DNA of 15,986 bases from an uncultured archaeon (GCA_963782915.1 CAWALK010000021.1:1-15986), one strand, 5' to 3'; numbered from the stretch's first letter, positions 2,440 to 14,310 are shown. Made by a program: numbers and translations. The notes: a model not told the origin generated them from the sequence alone.

Positions 2440-2504
2440 GGCCTTAGCCTCAGAGAAGACATGGTGGCAGGAAGAGTCATGTGTCCCGCCCTTTTGGTAA
2501 GGGT

Positions 2505-2671
2505 GTTGCAGGTTAGACGGCTGCAAATGTGCACCATACACAAGTGTTTCTCAATAACCATTGCTAATCTATAGCGCTCACTCAACGAGTGCAGACTACT
2601 TTAACAAAAAAACCTGCCAAGTGTTCTATCCTATATATAAGGGAGGGAGGGGGTCCATCTTGGAGAGCAAC
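2505..2671 (-). repeat. Dispersed non-coding element, copy A (homologous to 10616-10776, inverted)
   Basis: Hand alignment with the reverse complement of copy B gives 72/106 identities without gaps (2505-2610). The TATA block (ctatatataa / ctataaatag) stays in register, and both copies share a G-run and GAGAGCAACA. Ends are GTTGC...GCAAC. Confidence 0.85.
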
Positions 2672-2683
2672 AGAACAAAGAGC

Positions 2684-4459
2684 CTAAGTCATAAATCGCC
2701 TTGGGTCAGTGTCAATATCCACAATCGTTGGCTTAGTAGATTTCAGTGCCTTATCAACAGCTGCTTCGAGTTCTTGAGGCTCCCTGACTTTTATGCCCAT
2801 TCCGCCTGAGTGCTCTGCGAAGTCGGCGAAGTTGTAATCGTGCAGCTCTGTTTGCCAGCCCTCGTAGCCTTCGACTTTCTGTTCCTGCATGATCATGCCA
2901 AGCCGTTTGTTGTTTATGACAAACACTTTCACAGGCAGATTATACTTCAAGGCTGTTAAGAAGTCGCCGAGCACCATCGTTAAGCCTCCATCACCCGTAA
3001 TGCAGATAATCTGTTTTCCTGGATACGCCAACGCAGCTGCTAAAGCTCCCGGCAAGCCAAAACCCATCGTCGCCAACGTGCCGCTCATAACCATCTTCTG
3101 GGTTTTCTTCATGCCGAAGTTGCGTCCGAACCACCAGCAGTTCTCGCCTACATCAAGCGAAATTACTGCGTCGTCGGCGATTTTTTCGTTAAGCACCTTC
3201 ATGATGTACTGTGGCCTGATGGGTTTGGCGGTTGGGTCTGCTTCTTTTAGGAGTTGGGCTTGCCATGCTTGTTTTAGTTGCCCAATCTCTGCAATATACG
3301 CCGCATTATCCTTCTGCGCAACCTTCTCAGTTAGTTTAGGTATCAAAACTGCGCTGTTCCCCAATAGCGAAACCTCAACTGGGTAACGTCGTGCAATCAT
3401 CAAGGGGTTAATGTCGATTTGCACCATGCGTTTCTGGGGTATCTGCGACAAATCCGAGAATGAAGTGCCGATTGCTATGAGCAAATCGGTTTTATCCATG
3501 AGTTGACCTGCTGCGGTTGAACCGACTCCACCATGGCAACCAACATACAACGGTTCGCTGTCATCAACGAAACCTTTGGCGCGGAATGTGGAAATGATCG
3601 GTGCACCAAGCTTCGATGCCAGCTTCAGCAGCTTAGTTCCTTGACCGCGGCAGCCGAAACCAGCCAAAATCACCGGTCTCTGCGCACCATCAATAACTTT
3701 AGCGGCTTTCTCAATCACCCAAGTCTCCTGCCCATAAGCCAAATTCGGCATCCTGCCCTCAAACGGCAACACTTCAGCTTCAAAGGGCAGCTTCTGAACA
3801 TCATTAGGAATCCCAATATGTGCCACACCCTGATCCAACAACGCATGCTTAATCGCCAAAGTAGCCAACGCAGTCGTTTGGTCCTCCGTCATCAGGGTCT
3901 TGTTGTAAACGCTTAATGGCTCAAAGAAGGCTTGTTGGTCGATTTCCTGTGTTGCACCTCGCCCAATCAGTTTACGTGGCACCATACCAGTCAACGCCAA
4001 AACAGGCGAATGATCCAACTGCGCATCATAAAGCCCCGTAACGAGGTTTGTTGCGCCCGGACCGGAAATCCCCAGAACCGCCGCTACATGCCCGGTCAGT
4101 TTGCCATAGGCTGAAGCCATAAAAGCTGCGGTTTCTTCATGGCGAACTTGGATGTATTGGACTTTGCCGTTGGTTTTGCGTATGGCATCGACGACTCCGA
4201 GGGTGGATGTGCCTGGGATTCCGAAGACGTATTTTACTCCCCAAGCAGCAATCTGGCTTATCAGCACATCGGAAACCGTGGTTTCAGTCTTCTTAGGTTT
4301 AGCTTCTTTCTCCCCTTTCTCCTCAGACAAGAGCACAAAAGCCGATTTGGGAGCGCCACAGATTGGGCAAACCCATTCCTTCGGTAAATCAGTAAACTTT
4401 ACTTTTTCTTTAGCATCATCATAAACCCAGTTGCAGACTGTGCATCTGTATTTCGCCAT
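2684..4459 (-). CDS. Thiamine-pyrophosphate-dependent pyruvate oxidase/AHAS-family enzyme with N-terminal rubredoxin domain
   Basis: N-terminal rubredoxin [12 protein letters not shown]...[18 protein letters not shown], then [25 protein letters not shown] and the TPP motif GDGG...NN. SD-like GAGGGT upstream. Confidence 0.9.
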
Positions 4460-4574
4460 AAATAACCCTCAAAAACACTTAAAACTAAGCTGTTTCGTCC
4501 TTATCAGTTTTTGCTCACCCGAACAATTCATAAACTTCTCCAACCCACTATTCAACAAGTAGAGGATGTTATTC

Positions 4575-5507
4575 ATGGAGAATTGGGATGTCATAATCGT
4601 TGGCGCTGGTTCAGCCGGATGCGCGGCAGCCATCTATGCAGTACGCAGTGGACTAAAAACATTGGTTTTAGACGAAAAATTCGCTGGTGGAACAATCGCC
4701 GATGCCCCAACCATAGTGAACTATCCTGGATTCGCCGAAATCAGCGGTGGCGAATTGGCGCAGAAGATGGTTGACCATGCACGGAAACTGGGCGCAACTA
4801 TCCATGACGTAGAAGCCGTAACCGCCATGAGCTTATCAGGGGAATCAAAAACTGTAACCACAACCGCAACCACCTACGGAGCCAAAGCCGTCATAGTCGC
4901 TACAGGCTCCCACTACAAAGAGATAGGTGCTAAAGGCGAAAAAGAATTCCGCGGCAGAGGAGTCAGCTACTGTGGAGTCTGCGATGGACCCTTCTTCAAA
5001 AACAAGAATATTTTGGTGGTTGGCGGAGGAAACTCTGCTTGCATAAGTACGCTATACCTTTCTGGGTTGGCAGCGCAAGTTACGGTTATTCATAGAAGGG
5101 AAATGTTCCGCGCCGAAGAATCCCTTGTCAACGATATCAGCACCAAATCTAACGTCAAAATTATCTGGAACACAGAAATTCAAGAAATAAAAGGCGACAA
5201 ACAAGTCCGCTCTGTCACATTAATCGATAACTCCACTGGGCAAAGCAGCGAATTAGCTGTTGATGCGGTGTTTGTGCAGGTCGGCGAAGCCCCAAACAGC
5301 CAACTTGCAGCGGCTGCTGGGGTTGAAGTGGATGAGCATGGCTACATCAAAATCGACATACGCCAACACACTAACCTTGATGGCGTTTTTGGCGCAGGCG
5401 ACATTACCAATCATCCAGTCAAGCAGGTTGGTACAGCTGTTGGGCAAGGTATAACTGCGGCATTGGAAGCGTATGCTTTCATACGTAGACCTTACTACAA
5501 AAAGTAG
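4575..5507 (+). CDS. trxB: Thioredoxin-disulfide reductase (low-MW, NADPH type)
   Basis: GAGSAG FAD motif, GVSYCGVCDG redox CxxC, GGGNSA and HRRxxxR NADPH motifs, GAGDIT. ATG 4575 is preferred over 4566 because GAGGA lies at 4562-4566. Confidence 0.92.
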   Translation: MENWDVIIVGAGSAGCAAAIYAVRSGLKTLVLDEKFAGGTIADAPTIVNYPGFAEISGGELAQKMVDHARKLGATIHDVEAVTAMSLSGESKTVTTTATTYGAKAVIVATGSHYKEIGAKGEKEFRGRGVSYCGVCDGPFFKNKNILVVGGGNSACISTLYLSGLAAQVTVIHRREMFRAEESLVNDISTKSNVKIIWNTEIQEIKGDKQVRSVTLIDNSTGQSSELAVDAVFVQVGEAPNSQLAAAAGVEVDEHGYIKIDIRQHTNLDGVFGAGDITNHPVKQVGTAVGQGITAALEAYAFIRRPYYKK

Positions 5508-5548
5508 TTGTTTGTCACTAGTTTGATTGACAAACAACCTTTTGTCAA
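5507..5548 (+). terminator. 11-bp perfect inverted repeat directly after the trxB stop; terminator/processing hairpin or operator
   Basis: GTTGTTTGTCA-n10-TGACAAACAAC (5507-5538), followed by CTTTTGTCAA. Confidence 0.55.
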
Positions 5549-5635
5549 CAACGCCACCATTCCCACTTGACTTAAAACCCGCCAGATGATACGTTTGTTA
5601 ACTTCGACTTTTATAGGGGATTTTCATAATTTCCA

Positions 5636-5729
5636 GAGGAAGGATTATATGATTCACAAAGCCTTTTTGTGTTTCCAGTTTTAGCCAACACGCTAAAGCC
5701 TTAAAGTTAACCAGGGAAATGCAAGAGGT
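5636..5729 (+). promoter_or_regulatory. Candidate BRE/TATA, inverted repeat and SD of the MvhD-Fd/sudB/sudA operon
   Basis: Purine run GAGGAAGGA, then TTATAT (5645-5650), CACAAA-n5-TTTGTG (5655-5671) and GAGGT SD (5725-5729) before ATG 5736. Confidence 0.45.
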
Positions 5730-5735
5730 TTACCA

Positions 5736-6947
5736 ATGAGTGAGAAATGTCTCGCTGTAGTTGAGGTTAATCAAGACTTATGCAGTAGATGTTATGTTTG
5801 CCAATCCATCTGCCCCTACGAAGCCATAAAACGTGATGCAGAGGGCAAAGTAAACGTTAACATTCAGGATTGCCAAGTCTGTGGCATCTGCTATAGTGCT
5901 TGTCCAGCTTCAGCCATAAAAATGCAATATTACACTTACGATAACCTGACCGATTACCTAAAACAGGCGCAAGCTAAAGCACCCAAAACCGAAACCTTGG
6001 TTTTGATGTGCAGAGGCAACTCGCCAAACAACGGGGAAGTACAAGATATCCTCAAAGAGCAAGGACTCAAAGTCGACGATTATCTTGCATTGCGCTTGCC
6101 ATGTGCAGGCAGAGTTCCAACAGACTTTGTCTTTGAAGCACTAAACTTAGGCATCAAAAACATAGTCTCAGTTCAATGCGAAGACCCATTCTGCCGCTAT
6201 AAAGAAGGCACAAAAATCAACACCCGCAGACTCACACTTGCAAAGAATGTGCTCAAGCAACTCGGCTACGACGAAAACGCAGTCAAAGTTGTGAAGTTCT
6301 CACGCAAAGCAGTATACGACGTCTTGGAATGCGTTGGGTGCGACAAATGCATATTCATCTGCCCATACGGAGCATTAGAATTCGAATCCTTCGCCACCCC
6401 AAAAATCAACGAAGACAAATGCGTCGGCTGCGGCGCATGCCAACTGGTCTGTCCACACCACGCCATCCAAGTCAAAGGCTTCGAATTCGAAAACGTCCTC
6501 AAACGCTATGGCGACTGCGCAGCACAAGTCAAAGCCAAACTCAACGGTCCAGCTGTGCTCGCATTTGTTTGTCAATGGTCAGAATTCTCAGCACTGGACA
6601 ACCCCAACAAAGCATTCGAAGGCAAAAACGTCCTGGCACTCGAAGTTCCATGCTTCAAATCCCTCGACCCAGTCCACGTAGTCAACGCATTAAACTGCGG
6701 ATTCGACGGAGTCATGGCAGTAGTCTGCTCATCCAAAGACTGCAAACTACAGGAAGGAAGAGACACCGCAGAACGCAACCTAGCCGTAATCCTCGACGTA
6801 CTTAAAAAGAAAGGCTTACTAGACAGATTCCAACTCTACGAGGAATCACCACGCTGCCAAGGCGACTTCGAACAGAAACTCGAAGATTTCTACCAAAAAA
6901 TCTCTTCTCTACCAAAAACCGAAGCTAAAGTGGAGGACAAGCAGTAA
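5736..6947 (+). CDS. Iron-sulfur protein of two tandem modules, each a 2[4Fe-4S] ferredoxin plus an MvhD/FlpD-like [2Fe-2S] domain
   Basis: Four CxxCxxCxxxCP motifs (CSRCYVCQSICP, CQVCGICYSACP, CVGCDKCIFICP, CVGCGACQLVCP). MvhD-like segments LMCR..RLPCAGRV..QCEDPFCRYKEG and FVCQWS..VPCFKSLD..GFDGVMAVVCSSKDCKLQEG. Confidence 0.88.
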   Translation: MSEKCLAVVEVNQDLCSRCYVCQSICPYEAIKRDAEGKVNVNIQDCQVCGICYSACPASAIKMQYYTYDNLTDYLKQAQAKAPKTETLVLMCRGNSPNNGEVQDILKEQGLKVDDYLALRLPCAGRVPTDFVFEALNLGIKNIVSVQCEDPFCRYKEGTKINTRRLTLAKNVLKQLGYDENAVKVVKFSRKAVYDVLECVGCDKCIFICPYGALEFESFATPKINEDKCVGCGACQLVCPHHAIQVKGFEFENVLKRYGDCAAQVKAKLNGPAVLAFVCQWSEFSALDNPNKAFEGKNVLALEVPCFKSLDPVHVVNALNCGFDGVMAVVCSSKDCKLQEGRDTAERNLAVILDVLKKKGLLDRFQLYEESPRCQGDFEQKLEDFYQKISSLPKTEAKVEDKQ

Positions 6948-7792
6948 TGTACAAAATCATCACCAAAACCGAACTGGTACCAAAGATAAAACTCTTCGAA
7001 GTAGAAGCACCCGATGTCGCAGCTAAATCACATCCTGGACAATTCCTAATAGTAATCCACGGCGAAAAAGGCGAACGCATCCCATTAACCATCGCAGGCT
7101 ATGACGCCAAGAAGGGCACAGTTTCGTTTGCTTTCCATGAAGTCGGCAAAACCACCAAAGACCTGGGCAAACTTGAGCAGGGTCAAGAAATCGGCAACGT
7201 CACAGGTCCATTGGGCAATCCGTCCGAAATCAAAAATTATGGTAAAGTGCTTTGTGTCGGCGGCAGCGTCATGATAGCTCCATTACTGTTGCAGTCTAAA
7301 GCGATGAAAGAAGCAGGCAACCACGTAACCACTGTTCTCGGTGCACGTAGCGAACCCTTCATAATGATGGAAGAAGAAGCCAAAGCATACAGCCACAAAG
7401 TCATCATCTCAACAGACGACGGCTCAAAAGGCTACCAAGGCTTAGATTTCCTCAAAGAACTCTGCGAGAAAGAAAAGTTTGACCGCTGCGTCGTAATGGG
7501 ACCAGTCATACTCATGAAAGACGTAAGCGCCATCACAAAAGCCTACAACATCCCCACAGTCGTCACCTTAACACCCATCATGATTGACGGTATGGGCATG
7601 TGCGGTGTCTGCCGCGTTACAGTCGGCGGAAAAATGATGTTCGGCTGCGTGGATGGAGCAGAATTCGATGGTCACCTAGTAGATTTTGACGAATTAATCC
7701 TAAGACAACGCACAATGCTTCCTGAAGAACGGTTAAGCAGTGTGTTGGCAGATATGAAGGGAGGTTGCAAGTGTGGCAGAAATAAAGCCTAA
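6947..7792 (+). CDS. sudB: SudB/NfnA (small subunit of the ferredoxin:NADP reductase / NfnAB transhydrogenase family; FAD, [2Fe-2S])
   Basis: PGQF, GERIPLTI, VGKTT, GPLGNP, TDDGSKG and MIDGMGMCGVCRV...CVDG (Asp + 3 Cys cluster ligands). Start overlaps the upstream stop (TAATG). Confidence 0.9.
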   Translation: MYKIITKTELVPKIKLFEVEAPDVAAKSHPGQFLIVIHGEKGERIPLTIAGYDAKKGTVSFAFHEVGKTTKDLGKLEQGQEIGNVTGPLGNPSEIKNYGKVLCVGGSVMIAPLLLQSKAMKEAGNHVTTVLGARSEPFIMMEEEAKAYSHKVIISTDDGSKGYQGLDFLKELCEKEKFDRCVVMGPVILMKDVSAITKAYNIPTVVTLTPIMIDGMGMCGVCRVTVGGKMMFGCVDGAEFDGHLVDFDELILRQRTMLPEERLSSVLADMKGGCKCGRNKA

Positions 7793-9183
7793 ACCAAAAC
7801 TAAACAAGAAAGCCGTAGAAATGGCTAAGCAAGAGCCTCATGTTCGCGCGAAAAACTTTAGTGAAGTCGCATTAGGTTACACTGAAGCGGAAGCACAAGA
7901 AGAAGCAGCCAGATGCCTCTGTTGTCCAAACCCAATGTGCCGAACAGGTTGCCCCGTTGAAGTTCCAATTCCAACATTCATCAAATGCATCAAAGAAAAG
8001 AAATACGCTGAAGGCATAGCCGCCATCAAAACCAAAAACGCTCTACCAGCAGTTTGCGGAAGAGTTTGCCCACAGGAAGTGCAGTGCCAAAGCAAATGTG
8101 TCATCGGCAAAATGGGTGATCCAGTAAGCATCGGACGCCTCGAACGTTTCCTTGCTGATTGGGAACGCGAAAACGGCGCAGTAATGCCACCAAAAGCAGA
8201 GCCAACAGGCAAAAAAGTTGCAGTTATCGGTGCAGGTCCAGCGGGCTTAACCGTTGCAGCAGACCTCGTCAAACTCGGACACGAAATCACCATGTTCGAA
8301 GCCCTGCACATCGGCGGCGGAGTGCTATCTTATGGTATCCCAGAATTCCGTTTACCAAAAGCCATCGTAAACAACGAAGTCAACTACGTCCAGAAACTCG
8401 GCGTAGACTTACGACTTAGGCAACTTGGTTGGCAGAATCCACACTATCCCCGAACTCATGAAAAACGGTTACGACGCAGTCTTCATCGGCTCAGGCGCAG
8501 GCTTACCACAATTCACAGGTTGCCCAGGAGAAAACCTCGGCGGCATCTACAGCGCAAACGAATTCCTCATCCGCGTAAACCTCATGAAAGCCTTCCAATT
8601 CCCAGAATACGACACACCAATCCGCATCGGCAAACACGTAGTTGTCATCGGCGGCGGAAACGTAGCTATGGACTGCGCAAGAAGCAGCATGCGACTCGGC
8701 TCAACGGTTTGCTTACTCTATAGACGTGGACGGGACGAATTACCCGCAAGGCACGAAGAAATCGAAAACGCAGAAGAAGAAGGCTTAGTCTGCAAATTCC
8801 TCGCAGCACCAGTAGAATTCTACGGCGACGGCAAAGGCTGGGTTAAAGCCATGAAATGCATCGCTATGGAACTCACTGAACCAGACGCAAGAGGCAGACG
8901 AGGAGTCAAAACAATCGCAGGCTCAGAATTCATCATGGACGTCGACACAGTCATCATCGCAATCGGACAAACACCAAACCCAATCATCCAACGCACAACC
9001 GACGGCTTACAAAGCGACCCCAAACACGGCACAATCACTGTTAACGAAGTCGGCAAAACCAGCTTAGACGGAGTCTACGCAGGCGGAGACGTCGCCACAG
9101 GCGCAGCTACAGTTATCAGCGCCATGGGTGCAGGTAAACGTGCAGCTAAAGCAATGCATGAATACCTCATGAACAAAAAATAA
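7773..9183 (+). CDS. sudA: SudA/NfnB (large subunit, GltD-like; often annotated NADPH-dependent glutamate synthase), ~469 aa when repaired; one frameshift at ~8416
   Basis: ARCLCCPNPMCRTGCP, CGRVCPQEVQCQSKC, GAGPAG and YGIPEFRLP lie in the first frame. GNLVGRIHTI...GSGAG, GGGNVAMDCAR, YRR and GGDVATGAATVISAMGAG lie in the next. Removing one base from CGACTTAGGC fuses them. GTG start with GGAGGT SD, overlapping sudB. Confidence 0.9.
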
Positions 9184-9200
9184 TCCCCTAAAACCTTAGC

Positions 9201-9227
9201 CCTTTTTTGGGTACCAATTTTCTCTTT
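9201..9227 (+). terminator. Oligo-T archaeal-type terminator candidate after sudA
   Basis: CCTTTTTTGG...ATTTTCTCTTT about 20-45 nt after the stop. Confidence 0.45.
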
Positions 9228-9285
9228 AAGCTAACTTCTCCAAAACTTCATATCCCTAAAGGTTACCTGTTCAAGCGGGGAACCG

Positions 9286-10568
9286 ATGGTAAGCTTCTCG
9301 ATTAGCAAACGGGAAATTTTGATTCTAACAGGGTTGCTCTCTGTTGCTTTCGCCATAAGGCTTCTTCTGTTTCCAACGCAGGGTCTCCAAGGCGACATAG
9401 ATACTTTCCTTTCATGGTTTCGCACTGCCGTCAATTATGGCGTAAGACCATTCTATAGCATGGTTGGCTTCTGCGATTATCCGCCCTTTAATGTTTACAT
9501 CTTCTGGGTAGGCGGTTCCTTGGCGAATGCGTTTTCAGCTTTTGGTGTGAGCGCTGTTAACATCGTAAAGTTGATTCCAACAGTCTTCGACCTTGCCACG
9601 TCAGTGCTCATCTACCTGTTCGTGCGTAAACAGTTATCTTTCAAACAGAGTCTGCTGACAACTGCACTCTATGCTTTCAACCCAGCAGTAATCTTTAACG
9701 TCGCCGTTTGGGGGCAATTCGATGCAATCTACACATTCTTCCTCGTACTTTCCCTGATGCTGGCACTGAAAAGCAAACCCAAACTAGCTGCAGGCGTCTT
9801 CGCAGTTGGATTGTTGACTAAACCGCAAGGCATCGCATTAGCGCCCCTGCTAATCTACTTGATTTACAGAAAAAATGGCTTGAAGAACCTATTGTTTTCT
9901 GTAGGGGTGTTTGCCGCCACTGTTTTCGCGGTGATTTTGCCGTTTGAATGGAGTAACCCCATAAGCTTTTCTGGGCAACGCCTATTTTGGTGCCTATAAC
10001 CGCTATGAAGTGACATCGGTTAATGCTTTTAATTTTTGGGGGCTGTTTGGTTTATGGGCACCCGATGTTGGATTGTACTTGGTTGGGTGGGTGCTTTTCG
10101 GAGTTGCCGCAGCCTTCACGTTAGTCGTTTTGCATAAGCGGTTCAGAGTCTCAGGTGATTGGCTTGCAGTGTTCGGTGCGTTCATGCTTTTCTTTGCCTT
10201 CTTCATGTTGCCAACCAGAATTCATGAACGCTATCTTTTCCCAGCCATCAGCATACTAGCGCTGATGTTTTTCACTCGTAAAATACAGTCGCCCATTGTA
10301 TGTAGCTTTAACTGGAACTTTGCTTGTTAACGAAGCATATATTCTGTTTACGTCAAACGCTGCTGGAAACGCTGGCTTAAACAATCCTAACCTGACAGGC
10401 GATCCTGTGGTGCTGGCGGTTAGCGCTCTTAATTTGGTTATGTTCAGCTATGCCATTGTGCTTTTGTTGGCTGAATTGAGGGGCAAGGGCGTTTTCAATC
10501 GGGGCACCATTGGCAAAACTGAACCTGCAACTGCAACGCCCTCCTTTGAAGCAGTTGATGGTGGTTAA
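9286..10568 (+). CDS. Polytopic GT-C glycosyltransferase (lipid-phosphate-sugar dependent; ALG6/ALG8- or GT87-like), ~426 aa when repaired; two frameshifts (~9968, ~10270)
   Basis: Many TM helices with GDIDTF, CDYPP, WGQFD, TKPQ, NAFNFW and IHERY motifs. Removing one T from the T4 run (9967-9970) and one from the T5 run (10268-10272) joins the three ORFs (..ISF|LGNAYFGAYNRYEVTSVNAFNFW..ALMF|SLVKYSRPLYVAL..). Confidence 0.8.
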
Positions 10569-10615
10569 ACTTTAGGTTCCAAGAGTCGGAAGCTAACACA
10601 GAGAGAAGGGCTTTT

Positions 10616-10776
10616 GTTGCTCTCACAGGGGTACCCCCCTCTATTTATAGGGTAGACGCGTGCAGGTTGAGCATTGTTGAGGCAGTATGCATTCGTTGAG
10701 TATACGCGTTGCATAAGCAATGCTTGTTGAGTCTGGCTTATTTTTATTGCACGTTTGCAGCGGTTTAGAATGCAAC
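10616..10776 (+). repeat. Dispersed non-coding element, copy B
   Basis: Homologous to copy A. Contains a GGGGTACCCC palindrome (10628-10637), CTATTTATAG (10641-10650), four GTTGAG (10666, 10676, 10695, 10726) and GTTGC...GCAAC ends. Confidence 0.85.
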
Positions 10777-10793
10777 TTCATGCGAAGAGGTTC

Positions 10794-11990
10794 TTAGATA
10801 TCGCCTTTGATTGGTTCCTTAACCAATGCAATCCAGACTACAGCGCCCAATATACCCAAGCTGCCTAAAACCAGCCCAACAGCTTGATAGCCATAGCTGT
10901 TTAGCATGAATCCTGCAATAAGCGAAGACAACAGCATGCCCACATTCATGAATGCCGTATTAAGCGACATCATGGTGCTTCGGAATTTGGGCAATTGCTC
11001 AATAATTAAACTGCCTCCCGCCGAGAGCGTCATTGCAGCAAACCAGTAGCGTATAATGCTAACGGCGGCTGAAAGCTCAGCAGTTGGCATAAACATAAAA
11101 ACCAAAGTAAGCACACCCGTAACTACGCAGGCGACTGTGCCTAATCGTTTGCGCCCCATCATATTTACCAGTAAACCCGCGACGAAACCGCCAACGGCGC
11201 CCACGAGGCTTCCTACCAAAACAAAAGTTGACCCCCAAGCAACAGTCATACTGAATTGTTCCCTAAAGAAAGAAACTGAATAATACGCTATTGCACCCTC
11301 ACAAAGCATTAGCACAGTTACAGAAAGCGCGGCAATGGTTGATAGGTTGGAGAAAGCTTGTTTGCAGCCAAGGAAAAATGGTTCCTTCGGAAATGAAGGG
11401 ATTGTTTTGAGCCTATTTGGAATTACTATCGCTGCTAAGGTAAGACTTACTAATGAAAATGGCAGTGATAAGAGAATCGTTGCTGTTCGCCAATCGCCAA
11501 AAGTAGATATTAGTGCGGTTGCTGGTCCACCGACGAGGTATGCAAGCGTTATTGCTGCAACCATCACACCGACTGCTCTGCCTCTTTTCTCCAATGGATA
11601 CACGTCACCGATTATAGAGTAAGCCATGGCCGTAACCATAGCTATTCCAGCGCCTACACCAATGTTAGCCGCTAAAAGCACGTTGAAATTTGGCGCAAAA
11701 TAGTATCCCAATGTAGCTATGCTTGTACAGGCAAGACCAATCAACAGAAACAGTTTATGATTATAGCGTACACATAAAACAGCCATCAACAAGCCAAAGA
11801 CGACGCCTGATATTGAGCCGACAGAAGCTGTCATGCTTGCGGTTCCAACTTCAACCTGAAAGTTATGGGCTATATCGACCATAAGTATCTGGAAAGTGAC
11901 AGTGATTAACCAAGTGGACAGTGCAGAAAGTGCCAAAACCGGCAACAGAAGCCTACTGTGATGTAGGTTACCACTATTTGTACTGCCCAT
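10794..11990 (-). CDS. MFS transporter (DHA1/arabinose-efflux-like)
   Basis: About 12 hydrophobic segments with IIGDVYPLEKRGRAVG, MGRKR and LPKFRSTMMSLN. ATG 11990 is preferred (TTTAAATA 25-32 nt upstream); 12008 is possible. Confidence 0.88.
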   Translation of the reverse strand: MGSTNSGNLHHSRLLLPVLALSALSTWLITVTFQILMVDIAHNFQVEVGTASMTASVGSISGVVFGLLMAVLCVRYNHKLFLLIGLACTSIATLGYYFAPNFNVLLAANIGVGAGIAMVTAMAYSIIGDVYPLEKRGRAVGVMVAAITLAYLVGGPATALISTFGDWRTATILLSLPFSLVSLTLAAIVIPNRLKTIPSFPKEPFFLGCKQAFSNLSTIAALSVTVLMLCEGAIAYYSVSFFREQFSMTVAWGSTFVLVGSLVGAVGGFVAGLLVNMMGRKRLGTVACVVTGVLTLVFMFMPTAELSAAVSIIRYWFAAMTLSAGGSLIIEQLPKFRSTMMSLNTAFMNVGMLLSSLIAGFMLNSYGYQAVGLVLGSLGILGAVVWIALVKEPIKGDI

Positions 11991-12014
11991 GCCCCTCTCT
12001 TTCCGCATAAGATG

Positions 12015-12022
12015 TATTTAAA
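12015..12022 (-). promoter_or_regulatory. Candidate TATA box for the MFS gene
   Basis: TTTAAATA on the minus strand at leaderless-transcript spacing from ATG 11990. Confidence 0.45.
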
Positions 12023-12055
12023 ACAAAAATTAAAGAATTGGAAACGCCGATGATC

Positions 12056-13228
12056 TTATCCGACGCACCAACCGAACCGCTTGATATCAGCCGGCGAAAC
12101 CTTCTCAGCAACCATCAAATCCTTCAAGCACACCGGGTCGGTTTCTAAGTAGTCGCCTGTGCATGCGTATGCTCGTCCTCTGCAGCCGCCACAGCCTTCC
12201 CTGTATTCGCAGCTTCCACATTTACCCTTCAGTGTTTGACGTTGCCGCAGAGTATTGAGAACTTTGGAGTTGCGCCATATGTCACTTAGGCTTTGTTCTC
12301 GGATATTGCCGACTTTGATTGGTAAGAATGTGCAGGGGTAGATGTCGCCGTTTGGTCGTAAGCTAAAGTACATGTTACCGGCATGGCAGCCTATTCCGTT
12401 GTGTATCCAGAATTCTTTGATGAGTAAGTCTTTGGCTTTGGTGCCGTGGTTGCGATGCATTTCGCAGGCGATTTCTGGGTAAAGTGGGGTGCCGCCTGAC
12501 ATGGTGAAAGTCATTTCTGTGTCTTCTTGTTTGCTTTGTAGCCATCGGATGAGGTTGACTCTTTGCTCCATAGTCATTGCTTGATCCATTACGTCTTTGC
12601 CTCTGCCTACAGGAACCAAATCATAAACTGCAACTTCATCTACGCCCAAATCGTTTAGGAACTCTATGCGTTTAGGCATCTCACTGTAGGTATCCTTCAT
12701 TGCCATAGTAGTTATAACGACTTCTAAATCGATTTCGAGGCAGGTTTTGATGGCTTGCACTGCCCGGTTAAAGGTCCCCGGCAGATTGCGCAGGTGATCA
12801 TGTTTTTCGGGAACCACCGAGTCAATGGGCATGCCGATGGCTTTGATTCCTGCTTCTTTAAGCTGCAACGCCGTATGTGGGGTAATTAGTAAGCCGTTGG
12901 AGAGTACTGCTGTTATGATGCCTAAGTCGTCGCAGTGTTCAGCAAGGGCTAGGACAAAATCTTTGCGGAGCATGGGTTCGCCTCCGCTGAAAATTACTGC
13001 TTGCGTACCCAAACTGTGCATCTCATCAATTGCATGCATTGCTTCTTTGAGGTTTAATTCGCCGGGCATGGCTTCTCTGGCAGAAACATGGCAGTGTAGG
13101 CACCGTAGATTACACGCTCGGGTTACTGCATAAGAAACAATAAGGGGTGTATTGGGTTCACCCTTCAGTCCCTGCCCTAAGAGTTTCTGTCTCAGCATCA
13201 GCTCGAGCAGTTTAAAGGTTGTACCCAC
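12056..13228 (-). CDS. Radical SAM protein with SPASM domain (AhbC/AhbD/NirJ/PqqE-like subgroup)
   Basis: VTRACNLRCLHC, FSGGEP and PVGRG. SPASM motifs GCHAG...NGDIYPC...GKCGSCEYREGCGGCRGRA...DPVC. GTG start 13 nt after the LamG stop. Confidence 0.92.
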   Translation of the reverse strand: MGTTFKLLELMLRQKLLGQGLKGEPNTPLIVSYAVTRACNLRCLHCHVSAREAMPGELNLKEAMHAIDEMHSLGTQAVIFSGGEPMLRKDFVLALAEHCDDLGIITAVLSNGLLITPHTALQLKEAGIKAIGMPIDSVVPEKHDHLRNLPGTFNRAVQAIKTCLEIDLEVVITTMAMKDTYSEMPKRIEFLNDLGVDEVAVYDLVPVGRGKDVMDQAMTMEQRVNLIRWLQSKQEDTEMTFTMSGGTPLYPEIACEMHRNHGTKAKDLLIKEFWIHNGIGCHAGNMYFSLRPNGDIYPCTFLPIKVGNIREQSLSDIWRNSKVLNTLRQRQTLKGKCGSCEYREGCGGCRGRAYACTGDYLETDPVCLKDLMVAEKVSPADIKRFGWCVG

Positions 13229-13241
13229 AGCATTTCATCCC

Positions 13242-14171
13242 TTAGATTTTGGGTTTTATTATCCAGAGCTGGATTCCTCTGCGTAGTAGCCAAGCCACCG
13301 CGAAGACTATGGAGACAACGACGATTACTATGACCATGTTGGGGCCGATGTCGAAGCTGTTTTCGATGTTTTGTGCTAAGTCTGTGATTTTTATTTTGTC
13401 GATGGAAGCTAAACTGTCGTGTCCAAAGTAGTATTCTGTGCCTTGTAGGATGTTGCCGCTTGGATTCTGTGTGCCCGATAAGACTTTGACGGTTTGTTCT
13501 TGGTTGTTGATGTAGAGGTGCATGCCTGTGGCTGTTCGGGTAAACTGAACGTTTATCCACTCGTTCAGTTGGATTGGCTGGGTAGTTACGATTTCGTTGA
13601 AGCCGCCGGTTTCCGTCATGACGAAGCCGCTGAGTGCTCCCTCAACGTATTCTTCGCCGTTGCTTGGTGCCCCTGCACGCAAAGCTAAGCCGAGGACGCG
13701 GGTGGTGTTTTGCCATGCACAGGCTTGGTCGGGGTGGTCGCATTTGATTACAATGTTGTTGTAGGTTGCATCCTTGTAGCCGGGAACGTTGATCCACGCA
13801 TCTATTGTGAAGTACTCTTGGATGTCGAGGTTGGTTGAGATTGGGACATACATGGGTTCATCCATCGGTGGAAAGCCTACGACGAATTTGATAGGGACAT
13901 AAATCGCGTTTTCTCCATTGAACTGCATTGCTTTGCCCGATTGCCCATCAACAAGGCTTGGGTATGGGTCGCCTGCGAGTATTCCGTTGTTGACGCCGGT
14001 TGCGTCGGGGGTTATGGTTGTGGAGCCGCTGATTTTAGTTTCGTCTAGTGCCCACTCGCCAACTGTAGTTGAGCTTTGAGCTTGGGTTGATAAGAGAAAG
14101 ATTGGGCTTAGCATGGTTGCTACCAGCAAGCACAAGGTTAAGGTTTTTGTGAAGGTTTTTTTGGTTGCCAT
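13242..14171 (-). CDS. Secreted, C-terminally membrane-anchored LamG/concanavalin-A-like domain protein
   Basis: Signal peptide MATKKTFTKTLTLCLLVATMLSPIFLLSTQA. LamG motifs GEWALDE, DATGVNNG, GQSGKAMQFNG, FTIDAWI, LNEWINV, MHLYINN, IDKIKI. C-terminal TM helix plus RR. ATG 14171 is preferred over GTG 14192. Confidence 0.85.
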   Translation of the reverse strand: MATKKTFTKTLTLCLLVATMLSPIFLLSTQAQSSTTVGEWALDETKISGSTTITPDATGVNNGILAGDPYPSLVDGQSGKAMQFNGENAIYVPIKFVVGFPPMDEPMYVPISTNLDIQEYFTIDAWINVPGYKDATYNNIVIKCDHPDQACAWQNTTRVLGLALRAGAPSNGEEYVEGALSGFVMTETGGFNEIVTTQPIQLNEWINVQFTRTATGMHLYINNQEQTVKVLSGTQNPSGNILQGTEYYFGHDSLASIDKIKITDLAQNIENSFDIGPNMVIVIVVVSIVFAVAWLLRRGIQLWIIKPKI

Positions 14172-14280
14172 TTGTTTTACACCGTTAGGCACTGTGTGGT
14201 ATGTGCCTTATTGCTCTCCCCCGGGAACAGCCTGTTCCCCCGGAAGAACAGCAAAAACGGCTTCTTTGGTATCCCATAGC

Positions 14281-14292
14281 ATAATATATTAT
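14281..14292. promoter_or_regulatory. Palindromic TATA box, possibly bidirectional (LamG operon / NERD gene)
   Basis: ATAATATATTAT is a perfect 12-bp palindrome 19-30 nt before NERD ATG 14311. Confidence 0.55.
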
Positions 14293-14310
14293 CAAAGCTA
14301 ATCCTGTCGT

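Follow-up and report, generated by a model that had tools for sequence, protein, structure and literature searches.

A C-run/TATA cassette heads a multi-copy family of non-coding units at intergenic sites of a Bathyarchaeia genome

Two related non-coding elements on one contig

The DNA analysed here, called the window below, is the complete 15,986-nt contig CAWALK010000021.1 of an uncultured archaeon (GCA_963782915.1), which belongs to a 25-contig, 3.28-Mb Bathyarchaeia genome of 45% G+C and 93.5% completeness (G000). It carries two copies of a non-coding element, copy A at 2505-2675 on the minus strand and copy B at 10612-10776 on the plus strand. Both lie between convergent genes, and the gene labels of the original prediction, made on the window's sequence, are correct: copy A is flanked by an IF-2B-family gene (plus) and a gene for a thiamine pyrophosphate (TPP) enzyme with a rubredoxin domain (minus), and copy B by a fragmented PMT_2/GT-C gene on the plus strand and a gene for an MFS transporter on the minus strand. 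We report that such units, each opening with a promoter-like cassette, recur throughout the genome, and suggest that they may be small RNA genes.

Alignment by MAFFT of 2480-2700 (reverse complement) with 10590-10810 gave a mean column identity of 77% and recovered all the blocks listed originally, namely TGTTGCTCTC, a C-run, TATwTATAGG, GCAGGTT, TGCAyTCGTTGAGT, AGCAATGnTTrTTGAG, TGCACrTTTGCAGC and TGCAAC. The copies are homologous as proposed, with a local alignment score of 68 compared to 16.4 ± 2.2 (maximum 28) for 1000 dinucleotide-preserving shuffles; after removal of the promoter-like part, the bodies alone scored 51 versus 16.2 ± 2.6 (maximum 30). In BLASTN searches of the genome, copy A was not among the matches of copy B, nor B among those of A, the nearest relatives being C18:48028 for copy A (78% identity) and C12:126087 for copy B (79%). 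The two are therefore distant members of one family, and the link between them runs through other members and a profile.

A family of non-coding units with a G+T-rich body

A profile built from copies A and B alone gave 44 matches in the genome at E ≤ 1e-3. One iteration raised the number of places to 166; in 47 of these, the match spans 140 or more of the 167 profile positions, and at the remaining 120 or so, the match is mostly restricted to profile positions 1 to 50-60. The family thus comprises about 35-47 non-coding units in G000, which bears out the guess, made from two copies, of many per genome, and profile and alignment uphold the block-wise conservation in this multi-copy family.

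Past a TGCAG word, the body begins with a variable stretch that often contains GTTGAGG, followed by the box TGCATTCATTGAG, the box GCTTGTTGRGG and a T-rich stretch. Its 3' part consists of TGCACGTTTGCAGC and a short inverted repeat, TTGCAG..CTGCAA, and TTGTTG-like words are repeated upstream of the body and within it. The homology, said originally to end near TGCAAC, continues in many members for about 45 nt as a weakly conserved tail past the inverted repeat; this tail is well conserved between C1:67052 and its orthologue in G122, a close relative with about 85-91% DNA identity in colinear stretches. The body is 60.5% G+T and a second family behind the same cassette 76%, compared to 50% for the genome. 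Such a strand-asymmetric bias is expected of a transcribed strand rather than of a symmetric DNA site.

The composition also raises the question of a small hydrophobic protein, as G+T-rich DNA favours hydrophobic codons and single copies of the second family were read by eye as hydrophobic peptides of 30-35 residues. However, stop-free copies numbered only 0 to 7 of 26 in any anchored frame, the longest open reading frames (ORFs; median 29 codons forward, 36 reverse) were in the range of shuffles, and one-base indels shift the frame between close copies. A small conserved ORF was rejected on these frame and length tests, and a coding role for the body is extremely improbable.

The cassette and its genomic setting

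The most invariant columns of a 35-copy alignment lie in the cassette, which reads, in order, (C)TTTGTTGCTCTG, a short variable dyad, CCCCCTCCC and TTATWTATAG. A second variant of the upstream part, ACCTACCTCAGAGGTACCT, is mostly paired with TTATTTAAAG. With the core motif defined as CCCCCTCCC[CT]TAT[AT]TATAG and at most two substitutions, 148 occurrences were counted in the genome and none in the reversed genome. A rough gene prediction, with 3788 genes on 79% of the DNA, places 145 of the 148 in intergenic DNA, with 50 between convergent, 38 between divergent and 57 between tandem genes; at the 50 convergent sites, no protein gene needs a promoter. Stems of at least 4 bp were found in the 27 nt ahead of the C-run in 62 of 148 cassettes, compared to 26 of 148 after shuffling.

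The spacing of the C-run, the TATA box and TGCAG, located 12-16 nt downstream, is maintained in the 35 copies of G000 and in 23 members from 8 other genomes, and the sequence farther upstream varies by species. Members of other species also retain the boxes GCATTCATTG, GTTTGTTGG and CATTTGCAG.

When the 150 nt downstream of each cassette were grouped, 37 loci fell into the family of copies A and B, 15 into the second, still more G+T-rich family and 36 into a mixed group that includes tandem cassettes and antisense-abutting ones. The rest form small groups and singletons, some ahead of ordinary genes. The original prediction had seen the C-run and TATA blocks, and missed that they are a cassette common to about 100 further loci with other bodies.

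The second family (15 loci, e.g. C15:18910, C19:10104 and C20:358733) is non-coding and contains several tracts of GGG. Its first and last words, ACAACTGC and GCAGTTGT, are reverse complements of each other, and TTTT comes after the latter. About 12 cassettes directly adjoin, on the opposite strand, the final codons of genes from a family whose products have a conserved hydrophobic anchor, ..EWAMLVPDFIALFIAVIVCKVIH, at their end (e.g. C22:98695, C25:43103, C23:82909 and C20:262918). In these, the stop lies 6-8 nt from the TATA box and a second, tandem cassette is often ahead; the rough gene caller mostly missed the genes.

Promoter character and direction of reading

In the core-promoter test, both window copies present a TATA box of about 8 bp and lack a purine/A-rich B recognition element (BRE), the place of which is occupied by CCCCCTCCC. 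In archaea the TATA centre usually lies near -26/-27, and this spacing was used for the predicted start site in Table 1, where the features of both copies are collected.

Table 1. Coordinates of the features of copies A and B in the window
Feature	Position	Strand	Remark
Copy B cassette, upstream part: TTTTGTTGCTCTC and short dyad CTCT..AG	10612..10633	+	block heads most cassettes genome-wide
Copy B C-run CCCCCCTC, at BRE place, abutting TATA box	10634..10641	+	near-invariant in 35 copies; kept in other species
Copy B TATA box TATTTATA	10642..10649	+	near-invariant in 35 copies and in members of 8 other genomes
Copy B conserved word ACGCGTGCAG, 12-16 nt past TATA box	10656..10665	+	spacing kept in 35 copies and 8 other genomes
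Copy B predicted start site	near 10668-10675	+	from usual archaeal TATA spacing
Copy B G+U-rich body	10666..10776	+	
Copy B body box TGCATTCGTTGAGT	10688-10701	+	
Copy B body box AGCAATGCTTGTTGAG	10716-10731	+	
Copy B body T5 run	10741-10745	+	
Copy B body box TGCACGTTTGCAGC	10748-10761	+	
Copy B body inverted repeat TTGCA / TGCAA	10755-10759 / 10771-10775	+	
Copy A cassette, upstream part: TTCTGTTGCTCTCC (2675-2662) and C-run (2653-2641)	2641..2675	-	
Copy A TATA box TTATATATA	2632..2640	-	
Copy A body, from GCAG (2617-2614)	2505..2617	-	
Copy A body box TGCACTCGTTGAGT	2593-2580	-	
Copy A body box AGCAATGGTTATTGAG	2565-2550	-	
Copy A body box TGCACATTTGCAGC	2533-2520	-	
Copy A body end CTGCAAC	2511-2505	-	
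Copy A weakly conserved tail, GGGACACATGACTCTTCCTG, like tails of other members	2462..2504	-	beyond the end originally given
Segment of 1.6 kb: broken GT-C gene and copy B	9192..10812	.	missing in otherwise colinear G122, 85 nt instead

Copy A begins 9 nt past the stop codon of the TPP enzyme gene, which has the same orientation and ends at 2684. A placement of this kind is seen in 10 of 37 copies, which start at most 40 nt past the stop codon of an upstream gene read in the same direction; where the upstream gene reads away from the copy, the distance is never below 80 nt. For the cassettes as a whole, 18 of 148 have a co-oriented stop codon at a distance of at most 40 nt. Gene starts are about equally frequent on the two sides, with 69 behind the cassette and 64 ahead of it.

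The upstream regions of two tRNA-Glu genes (C8:5283-5372 and C12:326807-326896) consist of a BRE/TATA, CGAAAACCTATTTATTTC, then GAGAGCAACAAC, then the tRNA. Here GAGAGCAACAAC, the reverse complement of the upstream word of the cassette, is located between TATA and start site, a placement relevant to the question of which way the cassette fires.

Transcription could run away from the body, with the TATA box, a G-run and GAGCAACAA as initiator, and the body would then be upstream regulatory DNA. This agrees with the position of the word in the tRNA-Glu genes, behind a canonical BRE/TATA, with GAGCA found about 20-24 nt past TATA in the reverse sense in G000 and other species, and with the gene starts being as frequent behind the motif as ahead. 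However, both window copies would read antisense into a gene or a broken gene, 10 of 37 copies would run into the end of an opposite-strand gene, and the A-rich BRE is missing on that side of the TATA box; weak evidence comes from a 110-nt RNase P fragment that is fused to one family-A-like body in the forward sense. We consider firing in this opposite direction highly unlikely.

Distribution and turnover among relatives

We searched 120 genomes of the genus for the body with a sequence-only covariance model, taking the best 27 scored candidates per genome. The family is present in 9 of the 120, G000 included, i.e. in 8 of 119 others, with at least 27 matches in G000, 15 in G076, 12 each in G122 and G134, 11 in G088, 3 in G050 and 1 each in G103, G002 and G070. 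The cassette motif (at most one mismatch) occurs in 26 of the 120, the high-copy genomes being G000 (136), G065 (86), G070 (53), G058 (46), G085 (36), G076 (32) and G050 (25). As the exact motif varies among the species that keep the family, the C-run drifts between them.

Among the matches listed from a species-representative collection, exact cassette matches occur in many Bathyarchaeia assemblies and at one conserved site of Streptococcus, the latter probably unrelated. Viral contigs of IMG/VR gave just 8 single cassette matches, on which a viral origin of the cassette was rejected. One assembly titled Methanocella sp. contains at least 14 cassette loci with Bathyarchaeia-like G+U-rich bodies (L130, L131, L157, L158, L161, L169, L170, L172, L177, L183, L188, L193, L200 and L201), which reflects either a mislabelled or misbinned assembly or a cassette outside Bathyarchaeia.

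Comparison of orthologous sites showed a rapid turnover. In G122, the orthologue of copy A has a broken TATA box and C-run and a body only partly alike, between flanking genes about 88% identical. Orthologues are kept for C1:67052 and C12:46872 in G122 and for C24:40042 in G002, with certain blocks conserved and other stretches deleted or rewritten. At the site of C18:48179, G122 has a shorter, different member and two cassettes, and at that of C18:59549 unrelated DNA about 850 nt long. The gene beside copy A has other neighbours in all 5 of the more distant relatives compared.

The window segment 992-4136, with the TPP enzyme gene, copy A and the IF-2B-family gene, has a paralogous segment at C20:21582-25764 with a family member of its own (C20:24306-24148). 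Segmental duplication has thus multiplied some copies together with their flanking genes.

Mobile elements and known RNAs

This turnover would fit a selfish dispersed repeat, i.e. a miniature element spread by mobility or recombination, with no host function and a promoter look that is incidental or self-serving. The copy number is uneven among close species (at least 27 in G000 versus 1 in G002, which is 89% complete), the family was found in only 9 of 120 genus genomes, copies lie at synteny breaks or indels (the copy B segment, the C18:59549 site and the neighbours of copy A), orthologous copies decay and the outer limits of homology are sharp. Additionally, one family-A-like body is fused to a duplicated 3' terminus of the gene for RNase P RNA, which indicates that the units take part in DNA rearrangements.

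The hallmarks of such elements were nevertheless lacking where we looked for them. No target-site duplication (TSD) was found in the flanks of 25 complete copies, and no terminal inverted repeat (TIR) beyond a 5-6-nt word, the only end symmetry being GTTGC...GCAAC or TTGCAG...CTGCAA. None of 7 sites compared with G122 or G002 was a clean empty site, the absences being replacements or the 1.6-kb indel. No profile match was confined to the 3' end, the pattern expected of a split parent element. The Y1 transposase PF01797 gave no match in the 93.5%-complete G000 and was positive in 6 of 14 reference genomes in a control search; TnpB and other transposase families were not searched. An element is retained at the orthologous site in 4 of 4 pairs aligned in detail (three further sites have a different member at one and no element at two), the boxes and the spacing of the promoter are kept between species, and viral contigs yielded only the 8 single cassette matches given above. 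We regard a selfish repeat as unlikely, and it can overlap with a family of transcribed RNA genes. The original prediction had likewise seen no TSD, shared ORF or transposase, and its candidate of a miniature inverted-repeat transposable element (MITE) or repetitive extragenic palindrome (REP) is neither established nor dismissed by the missing TIR, TSD and clean empty site.

No Rfam match was found in the window at E ≤ 1, nor any tRNA or tmRNA in a scan of it; in 20 loci (62 kb) around members and cassettes, the notable Rfam matches were only a 23S rRNA start and a tRNA. C/D box small RNAs (sRNAs) have a C box (RUGAUGA) and a D box (CUGA) near their ends and a length of about 50-70 nt. This identity was rejected, the family consensus containing neither box. 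The original prediction had staked itself on three points, and on these the similarity between copies far exceeds that of shuffles, no match to an Rfam family or insertion-sequence end was found, and the family is present in relatives.

The RNase P RNA model RF00373 matched only C25:81043-81180, with 33.7 bits compared to a cut-off of 84 and the specificity domain wholly missing. An RNase P RNA identity was rejected, the window copies being without match and the sole match being a copied 3' end of the genuine gene. At that place (C25:80933-81185; L260 about 1391-1643), a family-A-like unit is fused at the common word GTCCTGCAAG to a 106-nt RNase P-derived stretch, which matches the 3' terminus of the genuine gene (C15:218743-219046) with 91.5% identity. 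Behind the unit at C12:62632 stands a more diverged version (77%) of this stretch. Short repeats of the final 26-29 nt of the fragment occur at C25:81760 and C25:82782, and the adjoining ACCCAATTA is repeated at 81760; these repeats look like the attachment sites of an integrating element.

Weighing a small RNA gene family

Of the three candidates offered by the original prediction, i.e. small RNA genes, an old MITE/REP-like element or a protein-bound chromosomal site, small RNA genes give the best fit, because each unit opens with a promoter-like cassette and the spacing from TATA to TGCAG is kept across species. We estimate at roughly 0.5 the probability that the copies are genes for small non-coding RNAs, each transcribed on its own from a dedicated promoter that is specific to the lineage, an estimate drawn from sequence comparison.

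Several results weigh against such genes. The first group concerns the fold, and neither it nor covariation gave the RNA candidate direct support. RNAalifold gave no consensus fold for the family, and the mean pair probability exceeded 0.25 solely for 3 pairs, from a 5' GCA that probably sits upstream of the predicted start site to a 3' UGC. Three helices picked by eye were paired in 66.9% of cells compared to 64.3% in shuffles, with a covariation score of 0.232 versus 0.195, and the closing helix in 75.0% versus 72.0%. The folding energy of 6 of 6 copies was no better than that of their own shuffles (z from -1.43 to +1.11).

The second group concerns transcript ends, targets and promoters. 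A candidate terminator, a run of four or more T located 87-92 nt past TATA, is present in 11 of 37 copies, including copy B and not copy A, and 16 of 37 have no run of five or more T within 400 nt. A search for RNA targets gave short genome matches only about 2-fold over mononucleotide shuffles, in low-complexity, CA-rich coding DNA, and on this result the variable stretches were rejected as guides to other places in the genome. The tRNA, signal recognition particle RNA, RNase P RNA and 16S rRNA promoters of G000 have a GAAAnn-type A-rich BRE and a TATA box, with no C-run, so that the C-run is unlike the BRE of stable-RNA promoters. Finally, single copies are dispensable, as orthologues in G122 have lost the TATA box or the C-run.

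From the spacing kept in G000 and other genomes, the strand bias of the bodies and the placement behind co-oriented stop codons, we infer a promoter function of the cassette, with transcription towards the body; its direction is stated with this reserve because gene starts are equally frequent on both sides, the tRNA-Glu genes carry the reversed word and the ordinary stable-RNA promoters are of another type. The 3' part of the body (T-run, CGTTTGCAGC, ..TAG) was considered as a degenerate second core promoter, which was unsupported: its mean score against the units' own core promoter was 3.3, whereas shuffles scored 2.8 and a body stretch unrelated to it 3.4, and an exact 7-mer was common to both in 8 of 35 copies.

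A cis-acting DNA element at gene ends, i.e. a protein-bound terminator-plus-insulator or a chromosome-organising site with no functional RNA, would account for the missing RNA fold. It would also suit the over-representation of convergent spacers (50 of 145 versus a simple expectation of 25%), the 18 of 148 cassettes and 10 of 37 copies at most 40 nt from the stop of a co-oriented gene, the T-rich first word of the cassette, CTTTTGTTG, which could end upstream transcription, the dyad of variable sequence ahead of the C-run and the repeated TTGTTG-like words upstream of and in the body. On the other hand, the strong G+T strand bias is not expected of a duplex binding site, a TATA box at a fixed distance from a conserved downstream word answers the need of a promoter and not that of a terminator, and no binding protein is known. 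Such a site is decidedly unlikely.

Proposed mechanism and comparison with known systems

If the small RNA gene reading holds, each unit would be a self-contained non-coding transcription unit headed by a lineage-specific promoter cassette, consisting of the upstream GCTC-containing dyad, the C-run at the BRE position and the TATA box, with the conserved word ACnnnTGCAG behind it. Transcription would start about 6-10 nt past TGCAG and yield a short G+U-rich RNA of roughly 70-110 nt carrying three boxes, GUUGAGG, UGCAUUCAUUGAG and GCUUGUUGRGG. Its 3' end may lie at a U-run about 88 nt past the TATA box, or else behind the UUGCAG..CUGCAA repeat at the terminus. An RNA with little stable fold would act, if it has a function, through its linear boxes, by base-pairing or protein binding, and not as a ribozyme-like folded RNA. 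The family would spread and turn over by duplication and recombination among intergenic sites, often right behind the stop of a co-oriented gene.

Archaeal intergenic sRNA genes with their own BRE/TATA promoter have been catalogued by RNA-seq in Methanosarcina, Haloferax, Sulfolobus and others. The units described here resemble them in being non-coding, intergenic and about 100 nt long, in the promoter-like distance between a TATA box and a conserved start region and in their independence of the orientation of neighbouring genes. In contrast to those single genes, about 35-47 paralogues per genome are found here, in a family known from sequence alone; a C-run takes the place of the A-rich BRE, and one cassette serves several unrelated bodies at about 150 loci.

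Qrr1-5 are a multi-copy bacterial sRNA family under one regulated promoter, and the present family is like them a set of paralogous small non-coding units with the same conserved promoter-like part and with conserved boxes between variable stretches. It differs in its ten times higher copy number and its fast turnover between close species, and it has neither a known regulator nor conserved hairpins or a terminator.

MITEs of archaea, such as SM1-SM4 of Sulfolobus, and the bacterial REP and bacterial interspersed mosaic elements (BIMEs) at gene ends are, like the units, dispersed and non-coding, 100-200 bp long, variable in copy number among relatives and enriched between convergent genes and directly behind stop codons. 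Unlike these, the units had no TIR, TSD, palindromic REP unit or Y1 (REP-associated, RAYT) transposase in our searches, and they carry a complete promoter-like cassette.

Bathyarchaeia are abundant, mostly uncultured archaea of sediment and soil. We found no published description of Bathyarchaeia promoters or small RNAs, and the phenomenon is unpublished as far as we searched. About 150 intergenic sites in G000 share one promoter-like cassette, and most of them head non-coding, G+U-rich bodies. If transcribed, these would be among the largest families of non-coding transcription units reported from an archaeal genome and would offer a handle on alternative promoter recognition in archaea; if not, they are an unusual dispersed repeat without the hallmarks of the mobile-element classes tested.

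A wider speculation, which we judge unlikely, is that the cassette represents a second, dedicated start class in a subgroup of Bathyarchaeia, recognised for instance by a specialised paralogue of transcription factor B (TFB). In each genome, over 100 short, G+U-rich non-coding RNAs would be transcribed from it, including those of the family of copies A and B, many of them behind stops or between convergent genes, where they might end upstream transcription and be antisense to the 3' ends of neighbours, as a genome-wide non-coding punctuation and regulation renewed by recombination.

Further observations in the window

The GT-C (PMT_2) gene beside copy B looks broken (9286-10568), as it is present only as a 237-aa fragment, and the two short ORFs behind it match no family. 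Farther along, a 2.35-kb stretch of the window (11958-14309) is replaced by 291 nt in G122.

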